NCBI GenBank assembly: GCA_041665085.1
Contig: JBAYJO010000003.1
Span: forward strand, 2,131 to 66,130
Direction of reading: 5' to 3'
DNA from: Patescibacteria group bacterium
GTDB lineage: Bacteria > Patescibacteriota > UBA1384 > JBAYJO01
DNA: 64,000 nt
In this document: in pieces, positions 157-55,729 of the stretch
Layout: each line of letters begins with the position of its first letter
Numbering within the stretch: the stretch's first letter is position 1
Notes under the pieces: model-generated
Databases searched by the model: none
What the model was told of the DNA's origin: nothing
Seen by the model: the letters and a program-made list of their open reading frames with translations, nothing else
Position numbers and translations under genes: made by a program

Positions 157-1749
157 TTAGGTGATTAATCTGCTGATCAATTCTTTAGCTTTTTCTATTG
201 AAATATGGGCAGTATTGGCGATTTCTTCAATTGAGGCTGTTTTTATATTTTCAACAGATCCGAAATGTTGGAGAAGAGATATTCTTTTTTTAGGTCCGAT
301 ACCTGATATTTCTTCAAGAGATGATTTCGGTTTTCGAAGCGACTTTTGAAAAGTAACAGCAAATCTATGAGCTTCATTTCTAATTCTTTGGAGTAAAAAC
401 AGGGTAGGCGAGAGAGTGGGAAGTATAATTGGTTCTTTTGAATTCGGAACAAAAATAAATTCAATTTTTTTTGCCATGGCGGCGATTGGAATATTTAAAT
501 CATATTTTTTAAGAATTGCTTTGCCGGCTGATAACTGACCCTTACCGCCATCAAGTAAAATAAGATCGGGGAGTGGCCAGAATTCTGATTTAGAATGGAT
601 TCCAGATCCGGATTGTCCTTCGGACTTCCGGTCTGGAATGACATTAGGATGGAGACTTCGCTTTGAGTCTGGAATGACAATGATAGATTGCTTTGTCGTT
701 CGCCTGTTGGCGGATTCTTTGCGATGACAAAAAGAGGAACTCGCAATGACAGAGGAGGATCTTGAAAATCGTCGATCAAGAATCTCGCGCATCGAGGCAA
801 CATCATTTTGAATATTTACTTTTTTAATTTTAAACTTTCGATATTCTGATTTATCTGATTCGCCTTCTGTAAAAACTATCATAGATCCGACAATATTTGT
901 GCTTCCTAAATTTGAAATATCAAAACATTCTATTCGGTGTGGAATAGATTTTAAATTTAATTCTTTTTTTAACTGATCAAGAGCTGACATATTTAATCTT
1001 TTTTCAGATTCGTTATTATCGCTTGAAAAGATAAAAGTGTCTGGTTGGTATTTTATTCTTTGAAGTATTGAAATTTGATCTCTTAAAATTTTTGCCAGTT
1101 CAAATTCTTCATTTTTTGAAGCAAGATTCATCTCACGCGATAAGTTGCGAATTGTTTTTTGAGATTTTGACGAGAGAAAATCAATTGCTCTTGCAACTTG
1201 TTTCGCATAAACTTCTTTTGATACTTTGCCTATGCAAGCATCTGTACATTTACCGATTAAATATCCTGAATATGGGCGATGATTGTGTTTAATGTGGCAG
1301 GTTCTGATGCCAAAAACTTGTTGCAAGACTCTGATTGTCTGGCGCATTGAAGAAGCGTTAGTATATGGACCAAAGTATTTTGCTCCATCACTTAATATTT
1401 TTCTGGCAATATGAATTCGAGGAAAATCTTCGTTGGTTAATTTAATGAGTGGGTAATTTTTATCATCTCTCATTTTAATGTTGTAATAGGGGTGATAGAG
1501 TTTGATTAAATTATTTTCAAGAATTAATGCTTCATTTGCTGACTTTGTTTTTATGAATTCGATATTATCGATTTGCTCTAGCATTGAAATATTTTTAAGC
1601 TCCGTTGGTTTTTGAAAATGGGATTTTATTCTATTTTTAATTGAAATTGCTTTTCCAACATAAATAATACGGTCGTTGGAATTTTTAAAAAGATAGACGC
1701 CGGTTTCATTTGGAAGCGATTTAATTATTTTTTTTATTTTATCTTTCAT
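157..1749 (-). CDS. uvrC: Excinuclease ABC subunit C (UvrC). The likely start is the internal Met at 'MKDKIKKIIKSLPNETGVYLF…', so the ORF-track start at 1794 is probably too far upstream. It carries a ~55-aa in-frame repeat-derived insertion.
   Basis: GIY-YIG N-terminus (…GVYLFKN…IIYVGKA…NRIKSHF). UvrBC-interaction region, RNase H-like 'DISNLGS…FWPLPDLILLDGGKGQ', and a C-terminal HhH. Nucleotides 600-765 are GC-rich and palindromic, and differ from the rest of the gene. Confidence 0.85.
   Translation of the reverse strand: MKDKIKKIIKSLPNETGVYLFKNSNDRIIYVGKAISIKNRIKSHFQKPTELKNISMLEQIDNIEFIKTKSANEALILENNLIKLYHPYYNIKMRDDKNYPLIKLTNEDFPRIHIARKILSDGAKYFGPYTNASSMRQTIRVLQQVFGIRTCHIKHNHRPYSGYLIGKCTDACIGKVSKEVYAKQVARAIDFLSSKSQKTIRNLSREMNLASKNEEFELAKILRDQISILQRIKYQPDTFIFSSDNNESEKRLNMSALDQLKKELNLKSIPHRIECFDISNLGSTNIVGSMIVFTEGESDKSEYRKFKIKKVNIQNDVASMREILDRRFSRSSSVIASSSFCHRKESANRRTTKQSIIVIPDSKRSLHPNVIPDRKSEGQSGSGIHSKSEFWPLPDLILLDGGKGQLSAGKAILKKYDLNIPIAAMAKKIEFIFVPNSKEPIILPTLSPTLFLLQRIRNEAHRFAVTFQKSLRKPKSSLEEISGIGPKKRISLLQHFGSVENIKTASIEEIANTAHISIEKAKELISRLIT
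600..765. repeat. Palindromic repeat element (GTCTGGAATGACA / TCGCAATGACA modules) inserted in-frame in uvrC.
   Basis: Its reverse complement carries 'tgtcattgcgag', 'aagcaatctatcat' and 'tgtcattccagac(c)gga' modules shared with the repeats at 18811-18880, 52849-53000 and 53451-53651. Local GC is well above the gene average. Confidence 0.7.
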
Positions 1750-1915
1750 CAAACGATATAATAACACATTTATTAATATTTGAATATTCCACATCTATTA
1801 AAATAGTTATATGTGAACTATATTATAGATAAGTAAATATTTATTTAAGGAAGGGACAAAATATTCGGGCCTTGGTTTTAGTTAAGTTTTGCTAATTCTA
1901 TTTTTGGTTATATTT

Positions 1916-5147: not shown

Positions 5148-6602
5148 ATGAAAAAAATTGTTAGTTTAGTTATTGGAATAATATTTTTTAGCTCATTTAA
5201 TATAGCTTATGCAGCTAATGTAAGTTTATCAATTTCCGGAGCAGGAAGTCATGATAATGGAACTGAATTTGATGTTTCAATAAATGTTGGAGCAAATGGT
5301 AATAATGTTTGTGCTGTTAGAGCAAATCTTAATTATCCATCAAATTTATTAGATGTAGTAAGCGTTGTAAAAGCAGGTCCATCAAGTGCATACTTAGAAA
5401 TTGACAACGATACAACTACAGCGGGAGTGGTCAAATATCTTGGTGGTTTTATGAATTGTACTACTAGTGATAAGCCGTTGTATATTGTAAAATTTAGAGC
5501 AAAAGCTGCTGGCAGTGGGCAATTTTCATTTGGTGAGACCCAAGTAGTGGGAGGATCAGGTGAAAATACTGTTGCTTTAGGTTTTTCTAAATCAACATCA
5601 GATATAAATATTAATCAGGTCAATAGTAGTGTTAGTTCAAGCGCTGATAGTAGCGGCGACGGTAGTGCTAGTAGTAGTTCTTCTGCATCAGGAGATAGTA
5701 GCAGCTCGTCATCTGATAGTAGCTCCAGCAGTACTGATTCGAGTAATACTTCAGGCAGCTCGGCTTCAACTGATAGTAATTCTAGAGCGAGAAATTCAAA
5801 TACCAACAATCAAAATTCTAATACTACTCCAGTGATTGTAGCTGTTAATCCATATTTAAAAACAGTTGTTTTTTCTAGTGATGCCTCTTTTGATACGGAG
5901 AACAAAAAAGTCAAAGGATTTACTTTTTCTGGTACGGCGGAACCAGATAGTAAAGTATATATTACAATAATGAGCTTTCCGATTTTAGCTGAAGCGCAAA
6001 CAAATTCAAGCGGCGTTTGGTCCTTTAGTATTACGAATTGGCTTGAAGATGGCGATCACACTTTGACTGCTTATTCTGAAAAAAACGGAATAAAATCAGC
6101 GGAAATTAAAGTTGGTTTTACTTTTCAAAGTGCCGATAAAAATAGTTTAAAAATAATTTCTGCTTCCGTAGTAAATAAAAATAGTAATTCAAACAATAAT
6201 TATAATACAAATACAAATTCTACCGCTAGCGCGGAAACAAATGCTACTAAAAGTAATTTTTGGACTATTTTAATGTATATCACTCTTGCAATCGTTGCGG
6301 TGATTGTTGTTTTTCTTGTTTTAATTATTAGGCGAAATAAAAATAATAATTCTATAAATCCAACTGCCGATATAAATAATAATCCAGTAATTAATCCAAA
6401 TCCGGTAAATAATGTTGAATCTATGCAACCCGAAAATCAGATTTCTGAAGAAAAAGTTTCAACTGAAGTGTATTCAGCTCCTTCAGTAATTAGCGAGCCT
6501 GTTGAAACTGGCAATACTAATCAAACAAATCAACAAAGTGAAGAGCCAGCAATAATTACTCCGTCTCAAGCTGAAGATGTGACCAAAGATACTAAAAATT
6601 AA
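5148..6602 (+). CDS. Membrane-anchored cohesin-domain protein (scaffoldin-like): signal peptide, cohesin, Ser-rich linker, Ig-like domain, C-terminal TM helix and cytoplasmic tail.
   Basis: Cohesin-like N-terminal module ('FDVSINVGANGNNVCAVRANLNYPSNLLDVVSV…LYIVKFRAKAAGSGQFSF'). Poly-Ser/Asp linker and TM 'FWTILMYITLAIVAVIVVFLVLII' near the C-terminus. RBS GGGGAAAAATG. Confidence 0.65.
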   Translation: MKKIVSLVIGIIFFSSFNIAYAANVSLSISGAGSHDNGTEFDVSINVGANGNNVCAVRANLNYPSNLLDVVSVVKAGPSSAYLEIDNDTTTAGVVKYLGGFMNCTTSDKPLYIVKFRAKAAGSGQFSFGETQVVGGSGENTVALGFSKSTSDININQVNSSVSSSADSSGDGSASSSSSASGDSSSSSSDSSSSSTDSSNTSGSSASTDSNSRARNSNTNNQNSNTTPVIVAVNPYLKTVVFSSDASFDTENKKVKGFTFSGTAEPDSKVYITIMSFPILAEAQTNSSGVWSFSITNWLEDGDHTLTAYSEKNGIKSAEIKVGFTFQSADKNSLKIISASVVNKNSNSNNNYNTNTNSTASAETNATKSNFWTILMYITLAIVAVIVVFLVLIIRRNKNNNSINPTADINNNPVINPNPVNNVESMQPENQISEEKVSTEVYSAPSVISEPVETGNTNQTNQQSEEPAIITPSQAEDVTKDTKN

Positions 6603-9405
6603 GAACTTCTCTTAAATATTGTCCGGTAAATGATTTTTCAACGCCTGCGATATTTTCTGGCGTGCCGGTAGCAACAATTTTACCGCCCTTGTCTCCTCCT
6701 TCGGGTCCAAGATCAATTATAAAATCCGCTGATTTTATAACATCTAAATTGTGTTCAATTACTAAAATTGAATTTCCTGCGTCAACTAAACGATTTAAAA
6801 CTAAAAGTAGTTTATTAATATCATCAAAATGAAGTCCTGTTGTTGGCTCGTCAAGGATGTAAAAAGTGTTTCCTGTTGCGGGCTTGGCAAGCTCCGAGGC
6901 AAGTTTGATTCTTTGAGCCTCACCTCCGGAAAGAGTTGTTGCAGATTGTCCTAGCTTGATATATCCAAGCCCCACATCCATTAATGTTTGTAATTTATCG
7001 GCTATTTTTTTAATTGGTGAGAAAAATTTTAAAGCTTCTTCAACAGTCATATTTAAAACATCAGAAATATTTTTTCCTTTATATTTTACTTCTAGTGTTT
7101 CGTGGTTATATCTTGAGCCGTTGCATACTTCACATGGAACATAAACATCCGGCAGGAAATGCATTTCAATTTTGATCAAACCGTCGCCATTACAATTTTC
7201 GCATCTTCCTCCTGTAACATTAAATGAAAATCTTCCCGGTCTATAACCCCTTTCGCGCGCTTCTTTTGTCATGGAAAAAATTTCACGAATAATGTCAAAA
7301 GTTTTTGTGTAGGTGGCAGGATTTGAACGCGGAGTTCGTCCAATAGGTGATTGGTCGATAATTAGTATTTTGTCAATTTTTTCTGCACCAATGATATCTT
7401 TATGTTCGCCCGGTTTTTCAAGATGGCGCATGATTTTGAATGCAAGGCCTTTATATAATATGTCATTGATTAAAGTTGATTTTCCTGACCCGGAAACTCC
7501 TGTAACGCAAGTAAATACGCCAAGCGGAATAAATGAATTAATGTTTTTTAAATTGTGTTCGCGCGCTCCTCTTATTTCTATAAAATCTTTTGGCGCTCGT
7601 CTTTTTTTAGGAACAATAATTTTTTTCTCGCCTCTTAAATATTGACCGGTAAATGATTCCGGACTTTCTAAAATTTCATTAAGTGAGCCTGAAGCAACTA
7701 CATTTCCACCGTGTTCGCCTGCTCCCGGTCCAATATCGACAATGTAATCAGCGGTTCTAATTGTTTCTTCGTCATGCTCAACAACAATAACTGTGTTTCC
7801 CAGTTCGCGCAAATATTTTAATGTATTGATCAATTTTAAATTGTCTCTTTGATGTAAACCGATTGACGGTTCGTCTAAAATATATAACACGCCCATAAGT
7901 TTACTGCCTAGTTGAGAAGCAAGTCTGATTCTTTGAGCTTCACCGCCGGCAAGTGTCAGTCCCATTCTGTCTAAAGATAAATAGTCTAAACCAACATTCA
8001 TTAAAAATTCTAATCTGTTCATAATTTCTTTTAGGACTTGACCAATTATGGTTTTTTCTCGATCGGTTAATGGTAAATTATGAAAAAAATCATATGCATC
8101 TTTAACTGATTTTGAAGTAAGTTCAGAAATATTTATTCCGTTTACTTTTATTGATAATGATTCTTTTTTTAGTCTTGCGCCTTGGCAGTCCGGACAATTA
8201 TTGACTGAAAAATATTTTTCAATTTCTAATCTTACGGCGTCTGATTCAGTTTGTTTGTATCTATCTTCAAGCATTCTGACAATGCCTTTCCAATTCAGAT
8301 TAAAGACATGCGAACCTGTTGCTGTGCGATGATGTATTTTAATTTTTTCATTTGATCCGTTTAATATTATGTCGAACTGTTCTTTTTTCAAATCTTTAAT
8401 TCTAACATTTGTTGGAATTTGATGATGTTCGCAAACTGCTTTTAATATTGCAGTTAAATATCCATTTTTATTAAAACTCCAAGGTACTATTCCTCCTTGA
8501 TCAATGGTTTTATTGTGATCCGGCATGATTAAATCAGCGTCAATTTCTCTTTTTACTCCAAGCCCTTGGCAAGTAGGGCAGGCACCAAAAGGGGAATTGA
8601 AGGAAAAGAGTCGAGGTGAAATTTCAGAATAAGAAAACCCGCAGGTTGGACAGGAAAGTTCTTCAGAAAAAGTAAAATCTTCGCCTGTTTCAAGGTTGTG
8701 AATTATGACAAGATGATCTGACAAATGAAGAGCTTGTTCAATTGATTCAGCCAATATTTTTCTATTTTCTAAATTTACAGTTGTTTCTGTAATTACGGCG
8801 TCAATATTTTGAGTTTTATATCTTCCAAGCTCAATTTTTTGATTTAAATCAACAAATTTACCGTTAATTCTAACCCTTAAATATCCATCTTGATATAGGT
8901 CGTTTAAGAGTTGGTGATATTCACCTTTTCTTCCGATAACAATTGGAGATAGAATTATTATTTTCTTATTATTTAATAGATCGGCAACGAAATCTATAAT
9001 TTGATCAATGGTTTGTTTTACAATCGGAGTATTGTCGTTTGGGCAAAACGGTTTTCCAACTCTGGCGTAAAAAACTCTTAAATAATCATATATTTCTGTA
9101 ATGGTTCCGACAGTTGAGCGGGGGTTATGGCTGGCTGATTTTTGGTCAATTGAAATTGCAGGGGAAAGTCCATCGATTAAATCTACATCCGGTTTGTCCA
9201 TTGTTCCTAGAAATTGCCTAGCATAAGAGGAGAGAGATTCTATATATCTTCTTTGTCCTTCGGCGTAAATGGTATCAAAGGCAAGCGATGATTTGCCCGA
9301 ACCGGATATACCGGTAATAACAACAAGCTTGTTGCGTGGTATATCAAGATTAATATTTTTTAAATTGTGGGTTTTTGCACCGCGAATTATAATTTTATTT
9401 TCCAT
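6592..9405 (-). CDS. uvrA: Excinuclease ABC subunit A (UvrA).
   Basis: 937 aa, two ABC ATPase modules ([14 protein letters not shown]…, [11 protein letters not shown]…), zinc-finger Cys pairs and LSGGE signature motifs. Confidence 0.95.
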
Positions 9406-9406: not shown

Positions 9407-11383
9407 TTAAAACTTAAATTTTCTTAATTCTTTGATTTCATCTCTGATTCTTGCTGCTGTTTCAAATTCCAAATGTTTGGCAGCTTCTCTCATGGCAATT
9501 GTTTTCTGTTTAATAATTTCCGGTACTTGCTCTAGATCTAAAACTAAATCTTCTGCTTTTTCTGCAATTTCTTCGTTTTTTTCATAAATTGAATATATTT
9601 CTTTTTTAATTGTTTGAGGTGTGATGTTGTGATCGGTATTATATTTTTGTTGGACTTTTCTTCTTTTTTCCGTGACTGAAATTGCTTTTTTCATTGAATC
9701 TGTGATTGTATCTCCATATAATATCACTCTTCCGGCTGAATTTCTAGCTGCTCGGCCAATTGTTTGAATAAGTGATCTTTCTGATCTTAAAAATCCTTCT
9801 TTATCTGCATCTAGAATTGCAACAAGTGAAACTTCGGGCAAATCTAGCCCTTCTCTTAAAAGATTAATTCCGACCAAGACATCAAATTCGCCTTTTCTAA
9901 GTCCGGCTAAGATTTCAAGTCTTTCGAGTGTATCTACTTCGGAGTGAATATATCTTGTTTTTACTCCTGCTTCGGTTAAAAATTCAGCAATATCTTCAGA
10001 CAAGGATTTTGTAAGTGTGGTTACTAAAATTCTTTCTTTTTTAACCTGTCTTAATCTAATTTCATGCAAGATATCATCGATTTGATTTTTTGTTGGACGA
10101 ACTTCAATTTCAGGATCAACAAGACCGGTTGGACGAATGACTTGTTCCACAATTTGAGTTGAGTTTTCCTCTTCAAAATGACTTGGTGTGGCTGATGTAA
10201 AAATTGCTTGAGAAACTTTTTTTTCAAATTCGTCAAATTTTAAAGGTCTATTATCAAGGGCTGATGGAAGTCTAAATCCATGTTCAACTAAAACTTCTTT
10301 TCTGGCGCGATCACCATTATGCATTCCGTTGATTTGAGGTATGGTAATGTGTGATTCATCGATTATGGTTAAAAAATCTGCAGGCCCGCCTTCAGTCGAG
10401 GCAGGAAAATAATCAAGTAAAGTTGCAGGAGGAGATCCGGCTGGACGATCTGACAAAATTCTTGAATAATTTTCAATACCATTACAATAACCAATATTTT
10501 CAAGCATTTCCATATCAAATTTTGTGCGCTGCTCCAGTCTTTGAGCTTCGAGCAATTTATTATGTGATTTTAAATCTTTAAGCCTTGATTCTAATTCAGA
10601 TTTTATTTCATTTAATGCTTTTTTGAGTTTTTGCGGTGAGATTAAAAAATGTTTTGCTGGGAAAATTGTAATATATCCAATATTTTCTGATTGTCGTCTT
10701 GAAATCGGATCAACTTCAAAAATATTAATTATTTTATTTCCCTGAAGTTCTACGCGAACAATTACATTTGCGTTAACCGGCATAATTTCAATTACTTCTC
10801 CTTTAGCTTTGAATGTTCCGCGTGTCAAATTTACATCGTTTCTCACAAAAAGCATTTCTATCAATTTTTTAATAATTTCATCTCGTGAAATTTTTTGAGC
10901 TGTGTAAATATTTAAAACCGTTTGTTTATATTCAATAGGGGATCCAAGACCATAAATGCAAGAAACGGAGGCAATTATAATTACGTCTTTGCGAGAAAGT
11001 AATGCTGAAGTGGCAGCATGTCGAAGTCTTTCAATTTCGTCATTTATTGTTGCTTCTTTCTCAATATAAGTGTCGGTTGTGGGTAAATATGCTTCCGGCT
11101 GATAGTAATCATAGTATGAAACAAAATATTCTACGGCATTTTTTGGAAAAAATTCGCGATATTCAGCGCAAAGTTGAGCCGCTAGAGTTTTATTTGGAGC
11201 AATTACAAGTGTTGGCTTTTGAATTTGGGCAATAATATTTGCAGCAGTGAATGTTTTTCCTGATCCGGTTACACCTAAAAGAGTCTGGTATTTTTGTTTT
11301 TCTTTGAGCCCTTTAACCAGCTTTTTTATTGCTTGTATTTGATCGCCTTTTGGCAAATATTTTTGTGATAATTCAAATTTCAT
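9407..11383 (-). CDS. uvrB: Excinuclease ABC subunit B (UvrB).
   Basis: 658 aa, helicase motifs ([12 protein letters not shown]), UvrB beta-hairpin region and C-terminal UVR domain '[13 protein letters not shown]'. Start is 2 nt downstream of the uvrA stop. Confidence 0.95.
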
Positions 11384-18810: not shown

Positions 18811-18880
18811 TGTCATCCTGAACTTGATTCAGGATCTAATTATTATTTATATAGATTCCGGATCAAGTCCGGAATGACAT
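18811..18880. repeat. Intergenic palindromic repeat (two hairpin modules), same family as the uvrC insert.
   Basis: 'tgtcatcctgaacttgattcaggatc' and 'attccggatcaagtccggaatgacat'. Lies between the permease stop and the ATPase start. Confidence 0.6.
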
Positions 18881-20303: not shown

Positions 20304-21080
20304 ATGGAAGAAAAATTTAAAAGGTTAAAAACCTTGAATGCGTGGGCGTGTTTGCTTCATTTGGTCTCGGGAATATTAATGGTAGCGTTATCAACTAACC
20401 TAGAAGTGCCTATTACGGCCTCTTTTTTGCATTTTGACAGATTTAGTCAGACTCTGGTTCCGCAGATGGAAACATTATTTTCAATTAAACTTGGACTACT
20501 TGTAGCATCATTTTTGTTTATGTCTTCAATCGCTCATTTTTTAATTGCTTTTCCACTTAATAGTTGGTACAACAAAAACCTTAAGAATAATATAAATATT
20601 GCAAGATGGATTGAATATGCTTTTTCGTCATCTGTTATGATGGTTGTTATTTCATTTTTAGTTGGTATGAGCGATATTGCAACTTTAATTGTAATATTTT
20701 TTCTAAATGCAATGATGATACTTTTTGGATGGATGATGGAGCTTCATAACCAAACCCTTCGACAGTGTTCGGAACAGGCCGAAAAGGTAAACTGGACAGC
20801 ATACATTTTTGGTTGTATTGCTGGAATTGGTCCATGGATTGCTGTTGCGATATATTTAGCAAGTCCGGGAGTAGCTGATAATCCACCAACTTTTGTGTAT
20901 TGGATTTTCTTTTCAATTTTTATTTTCTTTAACATTTTTGCTGTAAACCAGATACTTCAATATAAAAAATTCGGTAAATGGAATGATTATCTTTATGGAG
21001 AAAAAGTATATATTATTTTAAGTTTTGTGGCAAAATCGCTTCTTGCGTGGCAAGTTTTTGCTGGTACACTAAGACCATAG
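20304..21080 (+). CDS. Heliorhodopsin (7-TM retinal protein, inverted topology).
   Basis: Full-length similarity to characterised heliorhodopsin 48C12: 'RWIEYAFSSSVM', 'FGWMMELHN', 'FGCIAGIGPWIAV', 'KFGKWNDYLYGEKVYIILSFVAKSLLAWQVFAGTL'. TM7 has the Schiff-base Lys in 'SFVAKS' and TM3 the counterion Glu in 'WIEY'. Confidence 0.9.
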   Translation: MEEKFKRLKTLNAWACLLHLVSGILMVALSTNLEVPITASFLHFDRFSQTLVPQMETLFSIKLGLLVASFLFMSSIAHFLIAFPLNSWYNKNLKNNINIARWIEYAFSSSVMMVVISFLVGMSDIATLIVIFFLNAMMILFGWMMELHNQTLRQCSEQAEKVNWTAYIFGCIAGIGPWIAVAIYLASPGVADNPPTFVYWIFFSIFIFFNIFAVNQILQYKKFGKWNDYLYGEKVYIILSFVAKSLLAWQVFAGTLRP

Positions 21081-27528: not shown

Positions 27529-27588
27529 AACATTTTGCGTGTCAATAAACCAATGTCTTGTTAAAAAATAGCTTTAGCTTTAGCTTTA

Positions 27589-28354
27589 GGGGACGCTTCA
27601 CTTTCACTCAATGCTTTAGCGATAACTTAAATTTTGGTATAGTATAGTTATGCCACGACAACCAAGATTTCTTCCACCGGACAACTACTATCATATAATG
27701 AACCGCGGTAATAACGGCCAGCAGATTTTTACTTGTGATGAAGATTATCAATATTACCTCGACAAATTATTAGAACTTAAATATGAACATCCATTTAATC
27801 TCTCTCACTATTGTCTGATGCCTACTCATGTTCATTTTTTACTAAAAATAATCAAAGAAACTGATTTTTCCATCTTTTCAAAACGGTTGAACTTAAGTTA
27901 CGCTATTTATTTTAAAAGAAACTATGGCTCTATAGGCCATTTCTGGCAGGGTAGGTTTAAAAGCCAGTTAATAAGCAATGATATCTATCTTATGCAGTGC
28001 GGAAAATATATTGAATTAAATCCAGTCAGAGCAGACATGATAACAATGCCAGAAGACTATTCCTGGTCAAGCTATCAATATTATGCCTTTGGTAAAAAGA
28101 ACAGTTTGATTACCGAAGATATTTTTTACAATGAATTTGGAAATGATCAAAAAGAAAGGCAAAAAAATTATTCCCAATTTATGATTGATGAGGCTATTGC
28201 GACTACGATGAGTAGTAAGAAGCTAGCTATCGGAGCTAAAGATTTCGTGTATAATATAAATAGAAAAAATAAATACCACTTAGAAAATAAAGATGCTTCC
28301 TACCATTCAAAAAATACTTATCGCTAAAGTATTGAGTGAAAGTGAAGCGTCCCC
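27589..28354 (+). mobile_element. REP-associated tyrosine transposase (RAYT)/IS200-like element bounded by 33-bp perfect inverted repeats.
   Basis: Left inverted repeat 27589-27621 'ggggacgcttcactttcactcaatgctttagcg' and right inverted repeat 28322-28354 (its exact reverse complement). Short tandem repeats (tagcttt)x3 and (ccccgaaag)x2 lie just outside. Confidence 0.75.
27650..28327 (+). CDS. Y1 HUH tyrosine transposase (RAYT / TnpA-REP family).
   Basis: 'YHIMNRGNNGQQIF…HYCLMPTHVHFLLK…' has the HxH (HVH) motif, and there is a downstream Tyr region ('YSWSSYQYY'). Confidence 0.75.
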   Translation: MPRQPRFLPPDNYYHIMNRGNNGQQIFTCDEDYQYYLDKLLELKYEHPFNLSHYCLMPTHVHFLLKIIKETDFSIFSKRLNLSYAIYFKRNYGSIGHFWQGRFKSQLISNDIYLMQCGKYIELNPVRADMITMPEDYSWSSYQYYAFGKKNSLITEDIFYNEFGNDQKERQKNYSQFMIDEAIATTMSSKKLAIGAKDFVYNINRKNKYHLENKDASYHSKNTYR

Positions 28355-28397
28355 GAAAGTCCCCGAAAGACTATGATTTAGAGGGCGGGTATAATAC

Positions 28398-30626: not shown

Positions 30627-30811
30627 TTTTTTTGAATATTTAATTTGCTGAGTTTTAACTGTAGTTTTTTTATGATAAAATATTAGTTAGTTAAGATAGA
30701 AGATTTGTTATTAAATTTGGGTTGAAAATTGTTATTTAACATAAGAATTTTTTTCAATAAATAATCTTTTATTAGAAAACATAGCTCAAATAATATTAAA
30801 TGGAGGGGAAA

Positions 30812-32272
30812 ATGAATGATTCAAACCAACCCAAGAAGAAATTGGTTATATTTATTGTAATTCTTATTCTAATTATCGCGGGGATAGTTGTAAGTGGCTA
30901 TTGTCTGTATTGTTCTATAACCAAAACCAGTACCAACTTTGATACTAGTTCTATTTCTAGCATCGATGAGATGGCTTCATCGTGGCCGAAAAGTGATTCG
31001 CCTTGGCCGATGTTTCATGGCAACTATAATCATACCGGATTTGTTAATGTTTCAGGACCGGCTACTAATCAATTAAAATGGAAATATTTAATCGGGGCAA
31101 CTGCGGGTAATTTTCCTAACAGTGTGATTGTTGCTAAGGATGGAATCATATTTGTGGCTGGCAATAATAAGATAACGGCTTTAAATACCGATGGTTCTTT
31201 AAGGTGGGTTAAGGATTATAATTCAACGCAAGGTCCGTCTTTGTCTGCAGATGGAAAAACCTTATATTTTGTTTCTATGTCTTCGATCATTGCTACTTCC
31301 TCGCTTGACGGCAGTAAAATTTGGGAATTTAAAGCAGATGGTAATATGGTTTTTGGTCCGACGATCGGACCGGACGGGGTGATCTATCAGGGTTCTTGGG
31401 ATAAATATTTTTATGCCATTAATCCCGACGGCACACTCAAATGGAAATATTTGACCAAGGGCACAATCTCATATCCATCAAGTATTGATAAAAACGGTAA
31501 TATTTATCTTGGCGGCGGCGATGCTCACTTTGGTCCGGACGGCAATATTTACGCTTTTGACAAAGATGGCAAATTGCTTTGGACTTATGATACGAAAATG
31601 CTGCGAGTCGGTTCTCCTGCTATCGGTTACGATGGTTTGCTCTATTTCCCGGCCTCACCGGATTTGTTTGTATTGAATGTAAAAGGAGAACTGGTTTGGA
31701 AAAAAGGACCGGAAGCGGTTGTGACAGCGGCTCCAGAAAGTGAAGCTTCGAACGTCACGCCTGTTGGAACGACAAGCGAACCACAAAGCGGGGCACCGGC
31801 AACAGATTGTCCTCCGCCACCAGCACCTTGCGGTAATGTTCCCAGTGAAGCCGATGGAGGTGCGCAAGGAGGACCGTCGGGCATGGAAATTGAAGCTGGT
31901 GTGGAAGTAATTGCCGGTATTATTTCACCGGCCTTAACACCGGAAGGACTGATTTATATCGGTAACCCGCAAGGCAAATTAATGGCTATTGATTCAAAGA
32001 CTCAAGAAATTAAATGGTCATATCAAACCGGTAAAAATCCGGATCCAAAAGGCATTGATTTTGGTCTGCCAAGTTTTATTATTACAGATAAAGATGGAAC
32101 AGCTTATCTGGGTGCGTTTGATCATAAATTTTATGCTATTAGTAAAGACGGTAAAGAGAAATGGAGTTATGAAACGGGCGACAAGATTACCGAAGCGGCT
32201 CCTGCCATTGGCGCTGATGGCACAATTTATTTTACTTCGGAAGACGGATATGTTTATGCGATAGGGAAATAA
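30812..32272 (+). CDS. PQQ-like beta-propeller repeat protein (BamB-like) with a TM anchor and an internal Pro/Gly-rich GC-rich insertion.
   Basis: Repeated '…DG..YF.S.DG.LYA…G...W.Y.T' blades. The insertion at ~31715-31900 encodes 'TAAPESEASNVTPVGTTSEPQSGAPATDCPPPPAPCGNVP…'. Start follows RBS GGAGGGGA. Confidence 0.7.
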   Translation: MNDSNQPKKKLVIFIVILILIIAGIVVSGYCLYCSITKTSTNFDTSSISSIDEMASSWPKSDSPWPMFHGNYNHTGFVNVSGPATNQLKWKYLIGATAGNFPNSVIVAKDGIIFVAGNNKITALNTDGSLRWVKDYNSTQGPSLSADGKTLYFVSMSSIIATSSLDGSKIWEFKADGNMVFGPTIGPDGVIYQGSWDKYFYAINPDGTLKWKYLTKGTISYPSSIDKNGNIYLGGGDAHFGPDGNIYAFDKDGKLLWTYDTKMLRVGSPAIGYDGLLYFPASPDLFVLNVKGELVWKKGPEAVVTAAPESEASNVTPVGTTSEPQSGAPATDCPPPPAPCGNVPSEADGGAQGGPSGMEIEAGVEVIAGIISPALTPEGLIYIGNPQGKLMAIDSKTQEIKWSYQTGKNPDPKGIDFGLPSFIITDKDGTAYLGAFDHKFYAISKDGKEKWSYETGDKITEAAPAIGADGTIYFTSEDGYVYAIGK

Positions 32273-47518: not shown

Positions 47519-50125
47519 ATGATAAATAACCAAACAATAAATTCAGGAGCAGCTGTTAGTTCTCAAAAGAGAACTATTTTAGATGTGATGCTTGAATGGA
47601 AAGTTGTTGATCAGAAAAAAGTTGAATTGATGTCTAATTTAACCAATAATCTGGATATTGAAAATTTTTTACTTGGTCATAAACTTACTGATCGAGTTGT
47701 AATAAATAGGGCATATGCGCATTTATTTAATTTACAATATATTAATTTGCAAGATCAGACAGTAGATTTGAAAGTAGTTAAACTGATAAAAGAAGAGTTT
47801 TGCCGAAAATATTTTTTATTGCCTTATAGCTATTATGTAAATTCAGTTACAAAGCGAAAAGTAATTAGAATTGCTCTTGGTATGCCCGGCATGCTAAGAG
47901 GTGGCAATGGCCAAAATAGTCCTGGTGTGATTAGTAACTTAAAAAAATCTCAAAATGCTGATATCGAAATGGTCATTGCAAGTCCTGATGAAATAATTTC
48001 AATTCTAAATGATGTTTATCAAAAAAATAATTTTGTAGTTGAAAAAAAAGTTGATTTAAAAAAAGTTACAGTTCCTGTCAATATACTTTCCAGATTTCCC
48101 GAAGAAGTTGCGCGAAAATATCGAATGGTTGTTTTTGAAAACTCAAATCCATTAAAAATTAATGTTGCAGCAGAAAATCCGAAAGATAAAAAAGTTATTG
48201 ATATTTTAAATTTTATAAAAAAAAGAAGTAAATTTGACATTGATTTATTTCGAACGGACAGAGATAGCATTGATCATGTTTTGATGCAATATAATCCGCA
48301 AGTCAAGGGTGATCTAAATTTAATCAAAGAAGACACTTTAAAAAATATTAATAGTGTTGCGCCTGGAAAAGCAGAAGAATTATTTTCGTCTTTTGGTTCT
48401 ATAGGTCAACCAAACAGCCAAGTTATTTTTCCAAAACCGCAAGTGGATAATATTCCGCTAAAACCTAATGCGAATCAAGATATTGATTCTAAAAAAAATA
48501 TTAAGACCAATGATTTTTGGTCAGATGATAAACCAGAATCAGCACAAAAAAATCAAACAAAAACTTCGCGTGATTTATTGTCGGTTGATCCGCATTTGAT
48601 TGAAATAGATAAAAATGCAAGCAAAAAGACAGTTGATGAGACAGAGACGTCAGAAGAAGAAAAACGACAAAAAGAGCTTGATAGATTTAATTCTTTAGGT
48701 GGCCAGCTTGTAAAATCTAATCAAGCAGCACAAAAAAATATTGTAAAGCCGGAAATGGCTGCTGCACCTACGCAGGATATGCAAAATGATGAATTAGTTG
48801 TTAAAGACGAACATGAAATGCAAGTTGCAGAAATGAAAAGTCTTGAAAAAGAGCTAACTTTAAGATCAGAATCTGATTTATCATCTGTTCTAAAAGAAGA
48901 GGTATCATCTGAAGATCAGCTTAAGAAGATTATTGATAGTGCAACCATACCAGTCATTGTTGCGGCAATGATAAATTTTGCTTTACACAAAAGAGCTTCG
49001 GATATTCATATTGAACCTACTGAAAAAGAAGTGAGACTTCGATTTAGAATTGACGGAATTTTATACGACATTATGAGTATGCCAAGATATTTTAGGAGCG
49101 CTTTGATCTCTAGAGTAAAAATTATGTCAAAGTTAAAAATTGATGAGCAAAGAGTTCCGCAAGATGGTAGATTTGATGTTGTTTTTAGCAAGCAAAAGAT
49201 TGATGTTCGTGTTTCTACCTTGCCAACAATTTTTGGGGAAAAGGTAGCAATGAGGCTTCTTGATAAATCTGCCGGACTTTATACTTTGGAAGAACTTGGA
49301 CTTTCCGGTTCGAATTTAAAAAGACTTGAGGAAAATATTTTAAAACCTTACGGAATTATCTTAGCAACCGGTCCGACTGGTTCAGGAAAATCTACAACTC
49401 TTTATGCGATTTTGAAAAGAATTTCCAATCCGTCGGTTAATATTATTACTCTTGAGGATCCAGTTGAATATGAAATACCCGGTGTGAATCAGTGTCTTGT
49501 TAAACCGAAAATTGGTTTTAGTTTTGCCGAGGGACTTAGATCGGTTTTAAGACAAGATCCAAATATTATTATGGTTGGTGAAATTCGTGATTCTGAAACT
49601 GCCAATTTAGGTGTTCAGGCTGCAATGACAGGACATTTAGTGCTTTCAAGTTTGCATACAAACAATGCTTCAGGTGCCATTCCGCGTTTGGTTAATATGA
49701 AGGTTGAACCGTTTTTAATTACCTCAACAGTTAGCGCAATTATTGCTCAAAGACTTGTGCGACGCATTTGCCAACATTGCAAGCAAGAAGTAAAATTACA
49801 TCAGGAAGTAGAAATGAAAGTTCGTTCTGCTTTGGAAAATTTACAGGGTACTGATAGCTTGCCAGCGAATTTAGAATATAAATTTTATCAAGGTAAAGGT
49901 TGCTCTGAATGTCATCTTGGTTATGCCGGCAGAATCGGTTTATATGAAATTATGGTTATGAGCGATGAGCTTGAAAAGTTGACTGTTCAAAATAGACCAA
50001 CAAGCGAGATTGAAGCGCAAGCTGTAAAAGAAGGTATGATCACAATGTTTCAAGACGGTTTAATTAAAGCAATGAAGGGGATTACAACGATTGATGAAGT
50101 ATTTAGAGAAACGAAATTAGATTAA
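47519..50125 (+). CDS. pilB: Type IV pilus assembly ATPase PilB (GspE family) with a long N-terminal extension.
   Basis: C-terminal 'ILATGPTGSGKSTTLYA', Asp box, His box, tetracysteine 'CQHC…C…CSEC'. About 450 aa of N-terminal N1/N2 plus a low-complexity acidic region. Confidence 0.85.
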   Translation: MINNQTINSGAAVSSQKRTILDVMLEWKVVDQKKVELMSNLTNNLDIENFLLGHKLTDRVVINRAYAHLFNLQYINLQDQTVDLKVVKLIKEEFCRKYFLLPYSYYVNSVTKRKVIRIALGMPGMLRGGNGQNSPGVISNLKKSQNADIEMVIASPDEIISILNDVYQKNNFVVEKKVDLKKVTVPVNILSRFPEEVARKYRMVVFENSNPLKINVAAENPKDKKVIDILNFIKKRSKFDIDLFRTDRDSIDHVLMQYNPQVKGDLNLIKEDTLKNINSVAPGKAEELFSSFGSIGQPNSQVIFPKPQVDNIPLKPNANQDIDSKKNIKTNDFWSDDKPESAQKNQTKTSRDLLSVDPHLIEIDKNASKKTVDETETSEEEKRQKELDRFNSLGGQLVKSNQAAQKNIVKPEMAAAPTQDMQNDELVVKDEHEMQVAEMKSLEKELTLRSESDLSSVLKEEVSSEDQLKKIIDSATIPVIVAAMINFALHKRASDIHIEPTEKEVRLRFRIDGILYDIMSMPRYFRSALISRVKIMSKLKIDEQRVPQDGRFDVVFSKQKIDVRVSTLPTIFGEKVAMRLLDKSAGLYTLEELGLSGSNLKRLEENILKPYGIILATGPTGSGKSTTLYAILKRISNPSVNIITLEDPVEYEIPGVNQCLVKPKIGFSFAEGLRSVLRQDPNIIMVGEIRDSETANLGVQAAMTGHLVLSSLHTNNASGAIPRLVNMKVEPFLITSTVSAIIAQRLVRRICQHCKQEVKLHQEVEMKVRSALENLQGTDSLPANLEYKFYQGKGCSECHLGYAGRIGLYEIMVMSDELEKLTVQNRPTSEIEAQAVKEGMITMFQDGLIKAMKGITTIDEVFRETKLD

Positions 50126-50160
50126 GATTTTTTCACATTTTACTAAATTAAGGAGGGTAT

Positions 50161-51225
50161 TTGCCGGTTTTATCTGAAAGAATGAAATCATTACTTGACC
50201 AAGTACTGACGCGAAATGCCAGCGATTTACATATGATGGTTGGAACAGCGCCTATTTTAAGGATAGATGGCAAATTAGCAACTATTCCGGATGAAGCGGT
50301 GCTTTCGGAAGCTGATTGCGAAGAACTGATTGGCAGTATGTTGCTAGAAACACATATGGAAATTTTAAAACATCGAAAAGAGTTGGATTTTTCATTTGGA
50401 TATAAAGATTTAAGATTTAGAACTAATGTTTATTATCAAAAAGGAACTCTTGCGGCTTCGCTTCGTTCTATTTCCAGTGTAATTAGAAGTTTTGCTGAAC
50501 TTGGACTCCCGCCGATAATTGAAAGATTTGCAACTAATTCCCAAGGTTTTGTTCTGATTACCGGTCCAACCGGACATGGGAAAACAACTACGCTTGCATC
50601 AATGATTGAGCATATTAATATTACTCGAAGTGAGCACATAGTTACAATTGAAGATCCGATTGAATATGTATTTAATAATAAAAAAAGTATTATCTCGCAA
50701 CGAGAGGTTGGTTCAGATACAAATACATTTGCTCGTGCTTTAAGGGCTTCGCTTCGTGAAGATCCGAATGTTGTTTTAATTGGTGAAATGAGAGATCTTG
50801 AAACAATCGAAACCGCGCTTACTATCGCTGAAACAGGACATTTGGTTTTTGCAACGCTTCATACCAATAGCGCTTCTCAAACTGCCGATCGAATTATTAA
50901 TGTTTTTCCTCCACACCAACAACAACAAGTCAGACAACAACTTGCATCGGTTCTTTTGGGTATTGTTTCACAAAGATTAATGCCTCGGGTGCAGGGTGGA
51001 AGAATTGTTGCTTCTGAAATAATGCTTGCATCAACTGCTGTTAGGAGTTTAATTCGCGAAGGTAAAACATATCAATTGCCTAATGTGATTCAAACTTCTG
51101 CTTCCGAAGGAATGATTAGTCTAGATAAGGTTTTGGCTGAACTTGTAAGTAAAGGTGAGATAACAATTGATGATGCTTTGACTTGGGCAACTGATCCAAA
51201 AGCATTTAAAATGATGATTTACTAG
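50161..51225 (+). CDS. pilT: Twitching-motility ATPase PilT.
   Basis: 'ASDLHMMVG', 'VLITGPTGHGKTTTLASM', 'VVLIGEMRDLETI', 'GHLVFATLHTN'. The TTG start at 50161 lies 3-4 nt after AAGGAGGG. An alternative ATG is at 50182. Confidence 0.85.
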   Translation: MPVLSERMKSLLDQVLTRNASDLHMMVGTAPILRIDGKLATIPDEAVLSEADCEELIGSMLLETHMEILKHRKELDFSFGYKDLRFRTNVYYQKGTLAASLRSISSVIRSFAELGLPPIIERFATNSQGFVLITGPTGHGKTTTLASMIEHINITRSEHIVTIEDPIEYVFNNKKSIISQREVGSDTNTFARALRASLREDPNVVLIGEMRDLETIETALTIAETGHLVFATLHTNSASQTADRIINVFPPHQQQQVRQQLASVLLGIVSQRLMPRVQGGRIVASEIMLASTAVRSLIREGKTYQLPNVIQTSASEGMISLDKVLAELVSKGEITIDDALTWATDPKAFKMMIY

Positions 51226-51283
51226 AGATAGCTAAAAACTTAAAACTGAAAGATTAAAATCACAACTTAAAATTTATATTAAA

Positions 51284-51646
51284 ATGATTAAAACAAATAC
51301 TGATTTAAAATCACGTTCATACAAATTCTCATTAGATATTATTAGTTTTATTCAAAATATATCAAATTCTAAAATAAGTTTAGTTTTGATAAATCAGCTA
51401 TTAAGGTCAGCTACTTCAATAGGTGCTAATATTTTTGAAGCAAAATCATCTTCATCAAAAAGAGATTTTATTAAGTTTTTTGAAATTTCATTAAAATCTG
51501 CTAATGAAACAGAATATTGGTTAAATTTATTCAAAGATAGTAGGATCAGTAGCGTCAAAGAGGTTGATATTTTACTTGATGAATTAGTTGAATTAAGCAA
51601 AATGATTGCCGCAAGTTTATTAACAATGAAAAACAAAAGGAATTAA
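51284..51646 (+). CDS. Four-helix-bundle protein ('23S rRNA intervening-sequence protein' family, homologous to the DGR Avd protein).
   Basis: 120 aa, 'SYKFSLDIISFIQNI…LINQLLRSATSIGANIFEAKSSSSKRDFIKFFEISLKSANETEYWL' matches the family pattern. Flanked by AT-rich (T)TAAAACT-type repeats. Confidence 0.65.
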   Translation: MIKTNTDLKSRSYKFSLDIISFIQNISNSKISLVLINQLLRSATSIGANIFEAKSSSSKRDFIKFFEISLKSANETEYWLNLFKDSRISSVKEVDILLDELVELSKMIAASLLTMKNKRN

Positions 51647-51649
51647 AAA

Positions 51650-51687
51650 GGATTTAAGTTTTAAACTGTGGATTTAAGTTTTAAACT
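51650..51687. repeat. Tandem direct repeat 2 x 'ggatttaagttttaaact', followed by 'ttaaacttta aactttaaat'.
   Basis: Read directly. Sits between the four-helix-bundle gene and pilC. Confidence 0.6.
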
Positions 51688-51708
51688 TTAAACTTTAAAT
51701 TAAAAACA

Positions 51709-52779: not shown

Positions 52780-52848
52780 ATAGTATTGAGTATTTAGTAT
52801 TGGGTATTGAGTATAAAAAATAATTTGTAAAGCTTAAAGTCAAACTTT

Positions 52849-53000
52849 GTCATTGCGAGGTGTTTCCCTTTCCGTCATTGCGCCTGCCCGCCTTGGGAGG
52901 GAGGTCATCCGAAGCAATCTATCATATACAGATCGCCACAGCGCTGACGCTTCGCGATGACTACTTCTGTCATTCCAGCGTAGGCTGGAATCCAGAAGCA
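52849..53000. repeat. Composite palindromic repeat, copy A of a ~150-bp direct repeat.
   Basis: 'gtcattgcgaggtgtttccctttccgtcattgcgcctgcccgccttgggagggaggtcatccgaagcaatctatcatatacagatcgccacagcgctgacgcttcgcgatgactacttctgtcattccagcgtaggctggaatccagaagca'. Confidence 0.8.
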
Positions 53001-53035
53001 TTGATTTTGCAAAGAAATAAAATTAAACTTAAAGT

Positions 53036-53446
53036 ATGAAGAAAAAAGATTTTACAATTGATGATTTAGCAGTTATGGTGCAAAGTGGTTTTTTGGAGTT
53101 AAGAGATGAGATGCATGACGGATTTAATTCCCTTGATAAGAAAATTGACAATGAAGTGGGTAATCTTAGATCTGAAATGCAAGAAGGTTTTAATGAGGCT
53201 AGTAAGGAATTGCATAATGAAATAGACAAATTAAGAACCGAGATGCACGATGAGTTTAGGCGAGTTCACGAAGAGATAAGTGTATTAAAAGAGAGAATCG
53301 AATCCTTGGAAAACAGAATTAAGGATGATTTTAGTGTTTATGATGATGAAATAAGCGAGTTTCGTCGAAGAATCGATATGTTGGAAAAAGAGGTTGCAAG
53401 ATTAAAAAAGGATAATCCGTACATTCCAAAAAGGACTGTCCTTTAA
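53036..53446 (+). CDS. Coiled-coil protein (136 aa) with an N-terminal 'TIDDLAVMVQSGFLEL' motif. Paralog of 54522-54869.
   Basis: Repetitive 'LR.EM.EGF.E' heptad-like units. RBS absent or weak. Bracketed by the direct repeats. Confidence 0.55.
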   Translation: MKKKDFTIDDLAVMVQSGFLELRDEMHDGFNSLDKKIDNEVGNLRSEMQEGFNEASKELHNEIDKLRTEMHDEFRRVHEEISVLKERIESLENRIKDDFSVYDDEISEFRRRIDMLEKEVARLKKDNPYIPKRTVL

Positions 53447-53450
53447 ATAA

Positions 53451-53651
53451 GTCATTGCGAGGTTGTTTCCCATTGGTCGCTTTGGAAACAGGCTCTGTCA
53501 TTGCGAGGTGTTTCCCTTTCCGTCATTGCGCCTGCCCGCCTTGGGAGGGAGGTCATCCGAAGCAATCTATTATCATATACAGATCGCCACAGCGCTGACG
53601 CTTCGCGATGACTACCTCTGTCATTCTAGCGCAGGCTAGAATCCAGAAGCA
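53451..53651. repeat. Composite palindromic repeat, copy B. About 97% identical to copy A over ~150 bp, plus an extra 5' module.
   Basis: Nucleotides 53498-53651 align with 52849-53000 with ~5 mismatches and 1 indel. The extra 'gtcattgcgaggttgtttcccattggtcgctttggaaacaggctc' hairpin module sits at the 5' end. Confidence 0.8.
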
Positions 53652-53796
53652 ATCCCACGAGTTATCCCCAGTTTTGATTATGTCTGAAAGATAGTATTAT
53701 ATAGATAATAAATATTAATTATATCCTTTGTTTGAGTAGGTCGATCAGGGGATAGTATGTTTATTAAGTCGATTATTCATATTAAGGAGGTTTAAA

Positions 53797-54309: not shown

Positions 54310-54400
54310 TAGTATTTTAAGCTAAAGCTATATAAGAATACCTTGTCTTGCTGATGAGGTATTTTTATATTTATACTTAGAGGTAGAGGACGCATCACTT

Positions 54401-54424
54401 CTGCCTGCCGTCAGGCAGGTTTTA
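54401..54424 (+). terminator. Intrinsic terminator after the major pilin gene.
   Basis: 'ctgcctgcc gtc aggcaggt' plus TTTT. An additional AT-rich hairpin plus T-run lies 40 nt upstream. Confidence 0.65.
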
Positions 54425-54521
54425 ACCTGTTATATTCCATAAGCTATTAGATATTGTTTTATTGTCTTTTTAAATAAATAATTGTTGCTATAATATAGAT
54501 AAGAAGTAAAAAAGGAGAAGG

Positions 54522-55632: not shown

Positions 55633-55729
55633 TATAATAAGAATAAGTTGAAAGTTCGTAAAGCGCCTCATCGGCGCTCGCCGTAGAGGCGAGTTTATAA
55701 AATTTAAGATTTATAAATAGCGAGGGAAA

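Follow-up and report, generated by a model that had tools for sequence, protein, structure and literature searches.

This locus raises the question of how a core DNA-repair gene has come to carry, in its own reading frame, a block of DNA that resembles repeats lying between other genes. The DNA analysed is a stretch of 64,000 nucleotides from a Patescibacteria group bacterium (contig JBAYJO010000003.1, positions 2,131 to 66,130; hereafter the window), and the gene in question is uvrC, which encodes excinuclease ABC subunit C. An earlier note on this DNA had claimed that a stretch of about 165 bp of uvrC, at 600-765, is GC-rich and free of stop codons, that it wedges about 55 amino acids into a core DNA-repair enzyme after the motif ILDRRF, that it shares hairpin modules with intergenic repeats at 18811-18880, 52849-53000, and 53451-53651, and that it resembles the Rickettsia palindromic elements (RPEs). 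These claims were borne out by the analyses described below, except that the exact limits had to be redrawn: the location stood, but the element runs from 751 to 596 (156 nt) and the extra protein segment from 759 to 577. Our conclusion is that a composite of hairpin units resembling repetitive extragenic palindromes (REPs) is very probably lodged in uvrC, where it is carried as a tolerated passenger in a permissive loop of the enzyme.

The product of the gene contains the Pfam domains GIY-YIG, UVR, UvrC_RNaseH_dom (the RNase H-like endonuclease), and HHH_5 (HhH), and a database protein named UvrC from a Patescibacteria group bacterium (P0001) is 100% identical to it. Translation likely starts at the ATG at 1749, yielding a 530-amino-acid (aa) form, as deposited at NCBI. 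The identical UvrC protein was found on three contigs, which excludes an assembly chimera. Reading through 600-765 in the frame of uvrC encountered no stop codon, and the encoded peptide was flanked by ILDRRF and WPLPDLILLDGGKGQ; in the protein, the extra segment is situated between the helix ending in ILDRRFSR and the LILLD strand that bears a catalytic Asp. The GC content was 0.47 in 600-765, compared with 0.31 in the rest of uvrC and 0.35 in the window.

The relationship between this insert and the intergenic copies was examined by motif counts and by alignment. The motif GTCATTSCRR occurred 10 times in the window (1.0 expected), a number reached by 0 of 100 shuffles; 3 of the 10 occurrences were in the insert, and 5 were in the intergenic loci named by the earlier note. 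When the insert, read in the sense of the gene, was aligned locally with the intergenic copies, scores of 30-35 were obtained, compared with a shuffle mean of 16 (standard deviation 2.2), and the semi-global score was 111, compared with 66.8 (standard deviation 6.3); none of the 1000 dinucleotide-preserving shuffles attained the observed score in either comparison. Alignment of the insert to the intergenic copies in the opposite orientation was not significant. Across the whole window, the tiles that scored best against the insert were the copies at 52.8-53.6 kb. Moreover, the insert and these composites have a common order of modules, namely TGTCATTGCGAG, 11-14 nt, GTCATYGC, an inner hairpin, AAGCAATCTATCAT, and TGTCATTCCAG hairpin(s) ending in GGAATCCA, and the 14-nt block AAGCAATCTATCAT (693-680 in the insert) is identical in the intergenic copies.

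As shown in Table 1, the element in uvrC is built of four head-to-tail units, whose TGTC tags at 751, 729, 679, and 643 are all in one orientation and whose tail, GGAATCCA, ends at 596; a site without the element would join CGATTTTC directly to TGGCCACTCC. Unit 4 is the best kept hairpin, with an 8-bp outer stem (ATTCCAGA/TCTGGAAT) that begins with AT and is extended by the nested stem. Units 1-3, with just 4-6 paired bases each, are decayed or partial copies; unit 1 pairs weakly with the start of unit 2 (TTGCGA/TCGCAA), and unit 2 fits the fold of the family (GTC-ATYGC-inner stem-GCAAT-C). The loops are long, with 29 nt and nested stems enclosed by unit 4 and at least 11 nt by units 2 and 3. 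Compared with shuffles, the insert folded with a z-score of -2.9 as RNA and -4.7 as DNA. The uvrC copy is open in two of the three sense frames, and the frame in use is of the VIP...GI type (VIPDSKRSL..., and VIPDRKSEGQSGSGI from unit 4), in which GTC-ATT-CC... is read as V-I-P and GGA-ATC as G-I.

Table 1. Positions of uvrC, of the repeat-derived element and its units, of the intergenic copies, and of the Pfam-confirmed hosts of in-frame copies in metagenome contigs
Feature	Position or contig	Strand	Description
uvrC (excinuclease ABC subunit C)	157..1794	minus	545-codon open reading frame (ORF), first gene of the window
Extra protein segment, residues 331-391 of the 530-aa form	577..759	minus	From the indel relative to P0002 and 2NRT, and from the model
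Repeat-derived element	751->596	minus	156 nt, 52 codons; four head-to-tail TGTC-tagged units plus CCA tail
Unit 1	719..751	minus	TGTC-ATTGCGAG + 11 nt; 5' partial copy, of a type found family-wide
Unit 2	680..729	minus	TGTC-ATCGC...(inner hairpin CGCC-AACA-GGCG)...AAGCAATC, then TATCAT
Unit 3	644..679	minus	TGTC-ATTCCAGAC...GTCTCCAT-CCT; decayed hairpin
Unit 4	596..643	minus	TGTC-ATTCCAGA-(CCGGA..TCCGG nested hairpin)-TCTGGAAT-CCA; best kept hairpin of the element
Inverted dimer	18811..18879		Two TGTC-tagged units (ATCCTGAAC/ATTCAGGAT; ATTCCGGAC/ATCCGGAAT), tags outward, 16-nt AT-rich spacer
Composite copy 1	52848..52994	plus	147 nt; 66 nt downstream of gene 51709-52779
Partial unit	53451..53490	plus	4 nt past the stop of gene 53036-53446
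Composite copy 2	53496..53645	plus	150 nt; 95% identical to copy 1
Mfd/TRCF	L027, L089		L027 scanned by Pfam; L089 has a near-identical long open frame, unscanned
UvrD-type helicase	L122		Copy between motifs DEFQD and GDPKQSIY
Asparagine synthase (AsnB)	L055		GC 31%; two separate inserts
MiaB-like radical-SAM enzyme	L019
PrmC	L121		Copy just ahead of NPPY
DUF1015	L092
LpxB	L042

Tagged units were sought in the 64-kb window and in a further 12 kb beyond it (76 kb in all). Four loci carry them; none was found in the additional 12 kb, and uvrC is the sole gene with an in-frame copy. The genes uvrB (9407-11383) and uvrA (6592-9405), both on the minus strand and about 5 kb from uvrC, are intact, and neither has a tagged unit. 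Outside uvrC the tags are at 52848, 52968, 53496, 53619, and 18811, and at 18879 on the minus strand. The three intergenic loci are all found 4-66 nt past a stop codon and have genes of the same strand on either side: the tagged strand of the composite copies is the sense strand of the neighbouring genes, and the dimer at 18811-18879 has a minus-strand gene on each side and is about 6 nt away from the stop of the upstream one. Composite copy 1 ends in a canonical unit (52968-52994), TGTC-ATTCCAGC-GTAG-GCTGGAAT-CCA. When this unit was compared with that at 53619-53645, a compensated double change in the stem (CCAGC/GCTGG versus CTAGC/GCTAG) and one change in the loop were found; as a single case, the compensated change is consistent with selection for pairing. 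As RNA, the intergenic composite and the 18.8-kb dimer folded with z-scores of -3.9 and -4.9 against shuffles, and the composite folds to a long palindrome, GTCATTGCGAGG...CTTCGCGATGAC, plus a terminal hairpin. The long palindrome is absent from the uvrC copy. Also, the intergenic copies have a stop in the equivalent frame, e.g., VIPA*AGI, where the stop comes from the GTAG loop.

What kind of repeat is this? CGTC-tagged REPs, families CGTC-1 to CGTC-4, were described by Di Nocera, De Gregorio & Rocco (2013, BMC Genomics 14:522; PMC3733652). They are defined by a CGTC tag, which in many copies is TGTC or CCTC instead, by a loop of 4-5 nt on a stem that is 8-9 bp long and nearly always starts with A-T, T-A, and by a 3-nt tail that is mostly CCA; they occur mainly as inverted dimers, are dispersed in multiple copies, mostly in intergenic positions near the 3' ends of genes, and are reported to have no associated transposase. 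The window units at 52968-52994 and 53619-53645 agree with this definition at every point. The units at 18811-18838 and 18852-18879 have stems of 8-9 bp with at most one mismatch and form an inverted dimer. The loops of the intergenic units are GTAG, GCAG, and, at 18.8 kb, 3-5 nt long, whereas those of the insert are longer; CCA tails are present at 598-596, 52992-52994, and 53643-53645, whereas the 18.8-kb units end in CTA. As in the published families, the intergenic loci are 3' of genes and no transposase adjoins the units. Differences were also found. Patescibacteria are outside the five phyla named in the 2013 paper; in uvrC, four units are clustered head to tail, three of them degenerate, and grouped or head-to-tail arrangements are described as rare (PMC3733652); the terminal unit of the cluster encloses a nested insert of 29 nt rather than a 4-5 nt loop; and in the ATTGCGAG...GAAGCAAT unit there is an internal loop, and the inner stem is variable. 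Judged by sequence features against the published definition, the window units appear to fit the CGTC/TGTC-tagged REP superfamily, at the level of the superfamily.

The same source bears on the in-frame position. Intragenic units of Rickettsia conorii are listed in its supplementary table with the peptides VIPAKAGI, SFPRKRES, and CHSRESGNP, and one CGTC-1 unit is placed in R. conorii uvrC ("excinuclease ABC, C subunit", RC0864, residues 438-446). Intragenic REPs are said to be frequent in replication and repair genes (UvrA, UvrB, UvrC, UvrD, PolA, DnaE2, and RecBCD, with CGTC-1 in uvrB, dnaE, and further genes), and clustered intragenic REPs to add 43-82 residues (PMC3733652). The insert in the window resembles these in being in frame, in encoding a peptide of the VIP...GI type by way of the very frame that yields VIPAKAGI in Rickettsia, and in residing in a repair gene. 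In-frame insertion of the REP/RPE type is a known phenomenon, of which CGTC-1 in R. conorii uvrC is an example; what is new is the phylum, Patescibacteria. The present case is larger and more composite than most of those reported there, within the 43-82-residue range given for clusters.

According to the same paper, R. conorii CGTC-1 equals RPE-6 and CGTC-4 equals RPE-4. RPEs (Ogata et al. 2000, as summarised in PMC10969869 and PMC3733652) are palindromic repeats of about 100-150 bp, both intergenic and in frame in housekeeping genes, and their peptide segments are thought to be compatible with the fold of the host protein. The likeness noted earlier is more than an analogy, because the window units conform to the definition of the CGTC REPs, which are equated with RPE-4 and RPE-6; the link is through this shared unit definition, at the level of family features. 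The uvrC insert, like an RPE, is in frame in a housekeeping ORF, with 52 codons, no stop, and a fold that is predicted to be kept. It differs in its host and in frequency, with one in-frame copy in 76 kb versus dozens per Rickettsia genome. A synthetic query (CHSRESGDP plus UvrC motifs) for R. conorii UvrC returned four short fragments only.

Next to the repeat relationship stands an indel in the protein. In a search of 5.8 billion proteins, the nearest orthologue was P0002 (475 aa, 56-64% identity), which reads LDRRFSKVETGEWPLPDL at the site where the window UvrC has 65 residues, a difference of exactly 55. The 11.6-kb contig of P0002 has no tagged unit. Both outcomes that the earlier note had named as refuting, a segment shared with orthologues from repeat-free relatives and a similarity no better than that of shuffled sequence, were put to the test, and both results favour its call. 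When the structure of Thermotoga maritima UvrC (2NRT) was used for comparison, the flanks aligned to chain residues 4-81 and 83-206, leaving one residue where the window UvrC has 61. Among 56 homologues the connection from RRF to PDL measured 7 to 80 residues, with a median of 25; as far as the aligned sequences indicate, the RRF-PDL site is naturally permissive in length. Composition-matched shuffles of the segment were stop-free in the frame of the gene in 7% of cases, and when this is multiplied by the one-in-three chance of a suitable length, about 2% of random insertions are compatible with the frame. The contrast between the open uvrC copy and the stop-bearing intergenic copies is what survivorship would give: frame-breaking insertions are lost, and a retained copy is purged of stops.

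The effect of the addition on the enzyme was assessed by conservation and by modelling. All residues that are invariant across 57 UvrC sequences are kept, both the GIY-YIG residues and D277, D400, and H461 of the endonuclease. An AlphaFold2 model of UvrC built on the 57-sequence alignment had a mean predicted local distance difference test (pLDDT) score of 82, with 91-97 in the flanks and values below 50 at residues 340-387. No secondary structure was predicted for 341-395; residues 316-340 form a helix in the model, and residues 396-400 a strand. The modelled endonuclease domain superimposed on solved UvrC domains with target-normalised TM-scores of 0.86 (3C65; root-mean-square deviation 2.5 A) and 0.88 (2NRR). 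The most economical reading of the model is that the segment is a disordered surface excursion on an otherwise normal enzyme, and that both nuclease domains would be left intact by the addition of about 55 residues.

The distribution of the repeat family was examined by a metagenome scan for the core module, using the pattern TGTCATTGCGAG-N9-16-GTCATYGC-N20-40-AAGCAATC, which itself selects for at least one partial 5' copy. At least 120 contigs matched. Among the matches listed, contig GC ranged from 0.31 to 0.69, and the hairpin core was near-identical in listed contigs of 31-69% GC; the recurring unit was GTC-ATTGC-GA(G)-inner stem-loop-(C)GAA-GCAAT-C, in which the inner stem varies between copies yet stays complementary. 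Of the 95 distinct units listed, 39 had an inner stem that was perfectly paired over at least 5 bp, versus 5% of shuffles, and the median z-score of the minimum free energy was -2.0. Many listed copies are then followed by an inverted copy, giving dimers. Many members (L017-L136; e.g., L025 at 2497-2578, L060, and L052) are preceded by 2-4 tandem partial copies, each made of a locus-specific flank of 8-14 nt joined to the initial 12-16 nt of the unit, (flank+TGTCATTGCGAG..)n; where they fall within genes, such tandem partials give rise to repeats, as in HPLCHCEE x4 and VIASPSSS x3. Unit 1 of the uvrC element shows the same tandem 5' partial-copy feature. When the 60-aa insert peptide was searched against the protein database, no candidate was obtained, and the search missed even P0001, so it was blind to other in-frame copies.

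Eighty of the listed matches are flanked on both sides by at least 20 open codons within a stretch free of stops, and Pfam domains flank or span listed in-frame copies in seven kinds of host (Table 1). The in-frame candidates L132, L112, L116, and L065, on GC-rich contigs, were rejected as wrong-frame artefacts. DNA-repair genes make up 2 of the 7 Pfam-confirmed listed hosts (Mfd and the UvrD-type helicase), which echoes the bias reported in 2013 as a raw count in a small sample, without normalising for linker length. A UvrC from an unrelated phylum, in a Ktedonobacteraceae metagenome-assembled genome (P0011; L140, 1646-1787), has an 80-residue linker as its RRF...PDL loop. This linker contains a GTAG-tagged perfect palindrome (GTAG-GGACGCGAT-TT-ATCGCGTCC) and then a 24-nt x5 tandem array encoding (GDGHIAS)n; no second copy of the palindrome was present in the 5.3 kb available.

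Taken together, these data can be read as follows. A composite of CGTC/TGTC-tagged REP-like hairpin units would have lodged in uvrC, landing in the short link between the last helix and the catalytic strand LILLD(GGKGQ) of the RNase H-like domain for 5' incision. It may have survived there by virtue of a length that is a multiple of three (156 nt), a stop-free frame, and a surface link of naturally variable length. Given this length, the open frame, and the permissive site, the element would be transcribed and translated within UvrC, to which it adds about 55 presumably unstructured residues. Such DNA would then be neutral or mildly harmful, and nothing short of a precise deletion would allow purifying selection to remove it. 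The foreign composition, taken together with the repeat relationship and the indel, leads us to infer an insertion; the element may be "selfish" and may have been "inserted by transposition", and its expression and harmlessness are likewise presumptive. A tolerated passenger in a permissive loop is the most likely state of the element, and it is probably not an adaptive module.

Several observations weigh against this reading. Identity between the insert and the intergenic copies was about 58% of alignment columns, so the uvrC copy is an old and diverged, or mosaic, relative and no recent copy. Three of the four units of the insert are degenerate hairpins, and an origin from this particular composite would be argued from module order and shared blocks of sequence. 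There is one close orthologue only, at 56% identity, and the databases hold no near-identical relative with an empty uvrC site, so that the direction and date of the event are themselves inferred. The site is variable, and an older linker could form part of the 55-residue excess. No direct repeat of at least 4 nt was common to the 20-nt flanks of the uvrC element, as a target-site duplication would be, and no transposase linked to the element was found. Finally, production of the UvrC protein and its activity are presumed.

The alternative that survives best is that the insertion inactivated or crippled UvrC, leaving either a pseudogene that looks intact or a hypomorph under which the mutation rate rises (a "mutator", an idea floated for REP-decorated repair genes by Di Nocera et al., PMC3733652). 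The insert ends five residues ahead of the catalytic Asp of DGGKGQ, the corresponding connection in T. maritima is a single residue, and REP insertions recur in repair genes both in that paper and, with Mfd and the UvrD-type helicase, among the matches listed here. However, the 545-codon ORF is open and both nuclease domains have kept their invariant residues, intact uvrA and uvrB genes are close by, the loop spans 7-80 residues in presumably functional homologues, and the fold is kept in the model. We consider a crippled enzyme unlikely.

Alternatively, the element could be functional in place, either as a hairpin in the mRNA that adjusts the translation or stability of uvrC or as a peptide that provides UvrC with a new interaction. 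In favour are the strong hairpin of unit 4, a folding of the insert that surpasses shuffled sequence, and the conservation of hairpin structure among family members; the intergenic copies are also placed just 3' of genes, as are REPs thought to stabilise mRNA (PMC3733652). Against this, the presence of the same units in many unrelated genes, in varied frames and orientations, speaks against a role specific to one gene; disorder is predicted for the peptide, and a simple terminator scan of the intergenic copies revealed no terminator-like site. A function in place is distinctly unlikely in our view.

It is very improbable that the segment is a lineage-specific expansion of the linker in place (e.g., by slippage) whose likeness to the repeats is due to chance or composition. 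The site is indeed variable in length, and the Ktedonobacteraceae linker carries the 24-nt x5 array. Nevertheless, all 1000 dinucleotide-preserving shuffles scored below the observed similarity, which is confined to one orientation; the segment contains four TGTC tags, the identical 14-nt block, and a canonical tag/stem/CCA unit, and its GC content is 16 points above that of the rest of uvrC. This explanation is already largely refuted. The block is discrete, structured, GC-rich, and set in a conserved gene, as an intervening sequence (a small intron, intein, or translational bypass) removed before the mature protein would be, but such an origin is hardly credible, given that no Rfam family matched positions 1-2000 of the window even at E<=1 (the whole window at gathering thresholds gave tRNAs only), that an in-frame, stop-free segment needs no bypass, that its 55 low-complexity residues have no Cys/Ser/Thr...His-Asn junctions and are far below the size of mini-inteins (about 130 aa or more), and that the same repeats occur between genes.

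How might such a passenger move? The window contains one candidate mobiliser, the only Y1 transposase gene seen in the examined DNA. This gene (27650-28327, plus strand, 225 aa) encodes a RAYT-like (REP-associated tyrosine transposase) protein of the Y1/HUH type and lies more than 9 kb from any unit. It was matched by Pfam Y1_Tnp (in L138), and its best NCBIfam match was NF047646 "REP-associated tyrosine transposase", at 64.9 bits where the cut-off is 80. The gene sits within 27584-28359, between 42-nt terminal inverted repeats (TIRs) that are 95% complementary and unrelated in sequence to the TGTC units. This layout corresponds to the "TIRYT" of Di Nocera et al. (PMC3733652), and at the outer ends of the locus are short tandem repeats, AGCTTT x3 and TCCCCGAAAG x2. 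When the gene was used in a tblastn search of 757 kb of element-bearing metagenome loci, 0 hits were obtained. With unrelated TIRs and no such gene in those loci, the RAYT-like transposase is unsupported as the mobiliser, although it is possible that it acts in trans. The result in the window agrees with the published conclusion, as given in PMC3733652, that CGTC REPs are without a dedicated transposase.

Two other systems invite comparison. GTAG REPs and REPINs, which are mobilised by RAYTs, likewise consist of small hairpins with a tag, which are scattered downstream of genes and often form inverted pairs; the window units differ in their TGTC tag, and the RAYT-like gene here is flanked by unrelated 42-nt repeats and by no units. 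Miniature inverted-repeat transposable elements (such as ERIC, BOX, and Nezha; reviewed in PMC10969869) are similarly short, non-autonomous, structured, and occasionally intragenic with ORFs. In contrast, the uvrC copy has neither a target-site duplication nor TIRs, and its building block is a tagged hairpin of 25-50 nt with no TIR pair derived from an insertion sequence. Searches of the literature on the unit sequence, on later work on CGTC REPs, and on in-frame repeats in proteins of the candidate phyla radiation returned nothing relevant.

These observations extend the in-frame colonisation of core genes by REP/RPE-type hairpins to Patescibacteria, and with them to very small genomes. Such inserts inflate protein length and create odd low-complexity segments (VIAS..., VIP...GI, CHCE..., LAMT...) that can be mistaken for novel domains or errors. 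R. conorii UvrC also bears a CGTC-1 unit (PMC3733652), and the site is possibly a recurrent one. The metagenome scan suggests that one hairpin core has spread over very different genomes and has repeatedly been tolerated inside enzymes, which keeps alive two questions, namely by what means CGTC-type REPs move and why their hosts repeatedly include repair genes. A bolder proposal is that the TGTC-tagged ATTGC...GCAAT hairpin is a cosmopolitan, phylum-crossing mobile element whose bias towards linkers of nucleotide-excision and recombination-repair enzymes (UvrC here, Mfd and the UvrD-type helicase in metagenomes, and those of the 2013 survey) exceeds what survivorship in large multidomain proteins would give, by virtue of repair- or replication-linked targeting of hairpin DNA or of selection for altered repair capacity (mutator or anti-mutator); this is a speculation that we hold to be rather unlikely. 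For protein engineering, the RRF...PDL connection of UvrC may be of use as a site that accepts 50-80 extra residues.

A few minor features of the window are recorded here. An island of high GC content at 31.5-32.0 kb aligned to the insert with a moderate score and was rejected as a copy, being ordinary beta-propeller coding sequence with a Pro/Ala/Gly-rich linker. In the gene concerned (30800-32272, plus strand), which encodes a PQQ-like beta-propeller protein, GC content reaches 0.61 at 31700-31900, in the linker, within a 35%-GC genome; this segment may be another kind of insertion, with no copy of the TGTC unit. The gene at 53036-53446 encodes a 136-aa coiled-coil protein without a Pfam match and is bracketed by the two direct, 95%-identical copies of 147-150 nt, and the start of a 75%-similar paralogue is present at 54534-54598; the arrangement at 52848-53645 could be a recent duplication or a mobilised cassette. 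A type IV pilus/type II secretion-like cluster (47519-60000) contains two T2SSE ATPases, T2SSF, a prepilin peptidase, and at least five pilin-like genes with a common N-terminal methylation motif (repeat family D1). A gene of the 23S_rRNA_IVP family is located at 51284-51646, and a heliorhodopsin gene (Pfam PF18761) is located at 20304-21080 on the plus strand.

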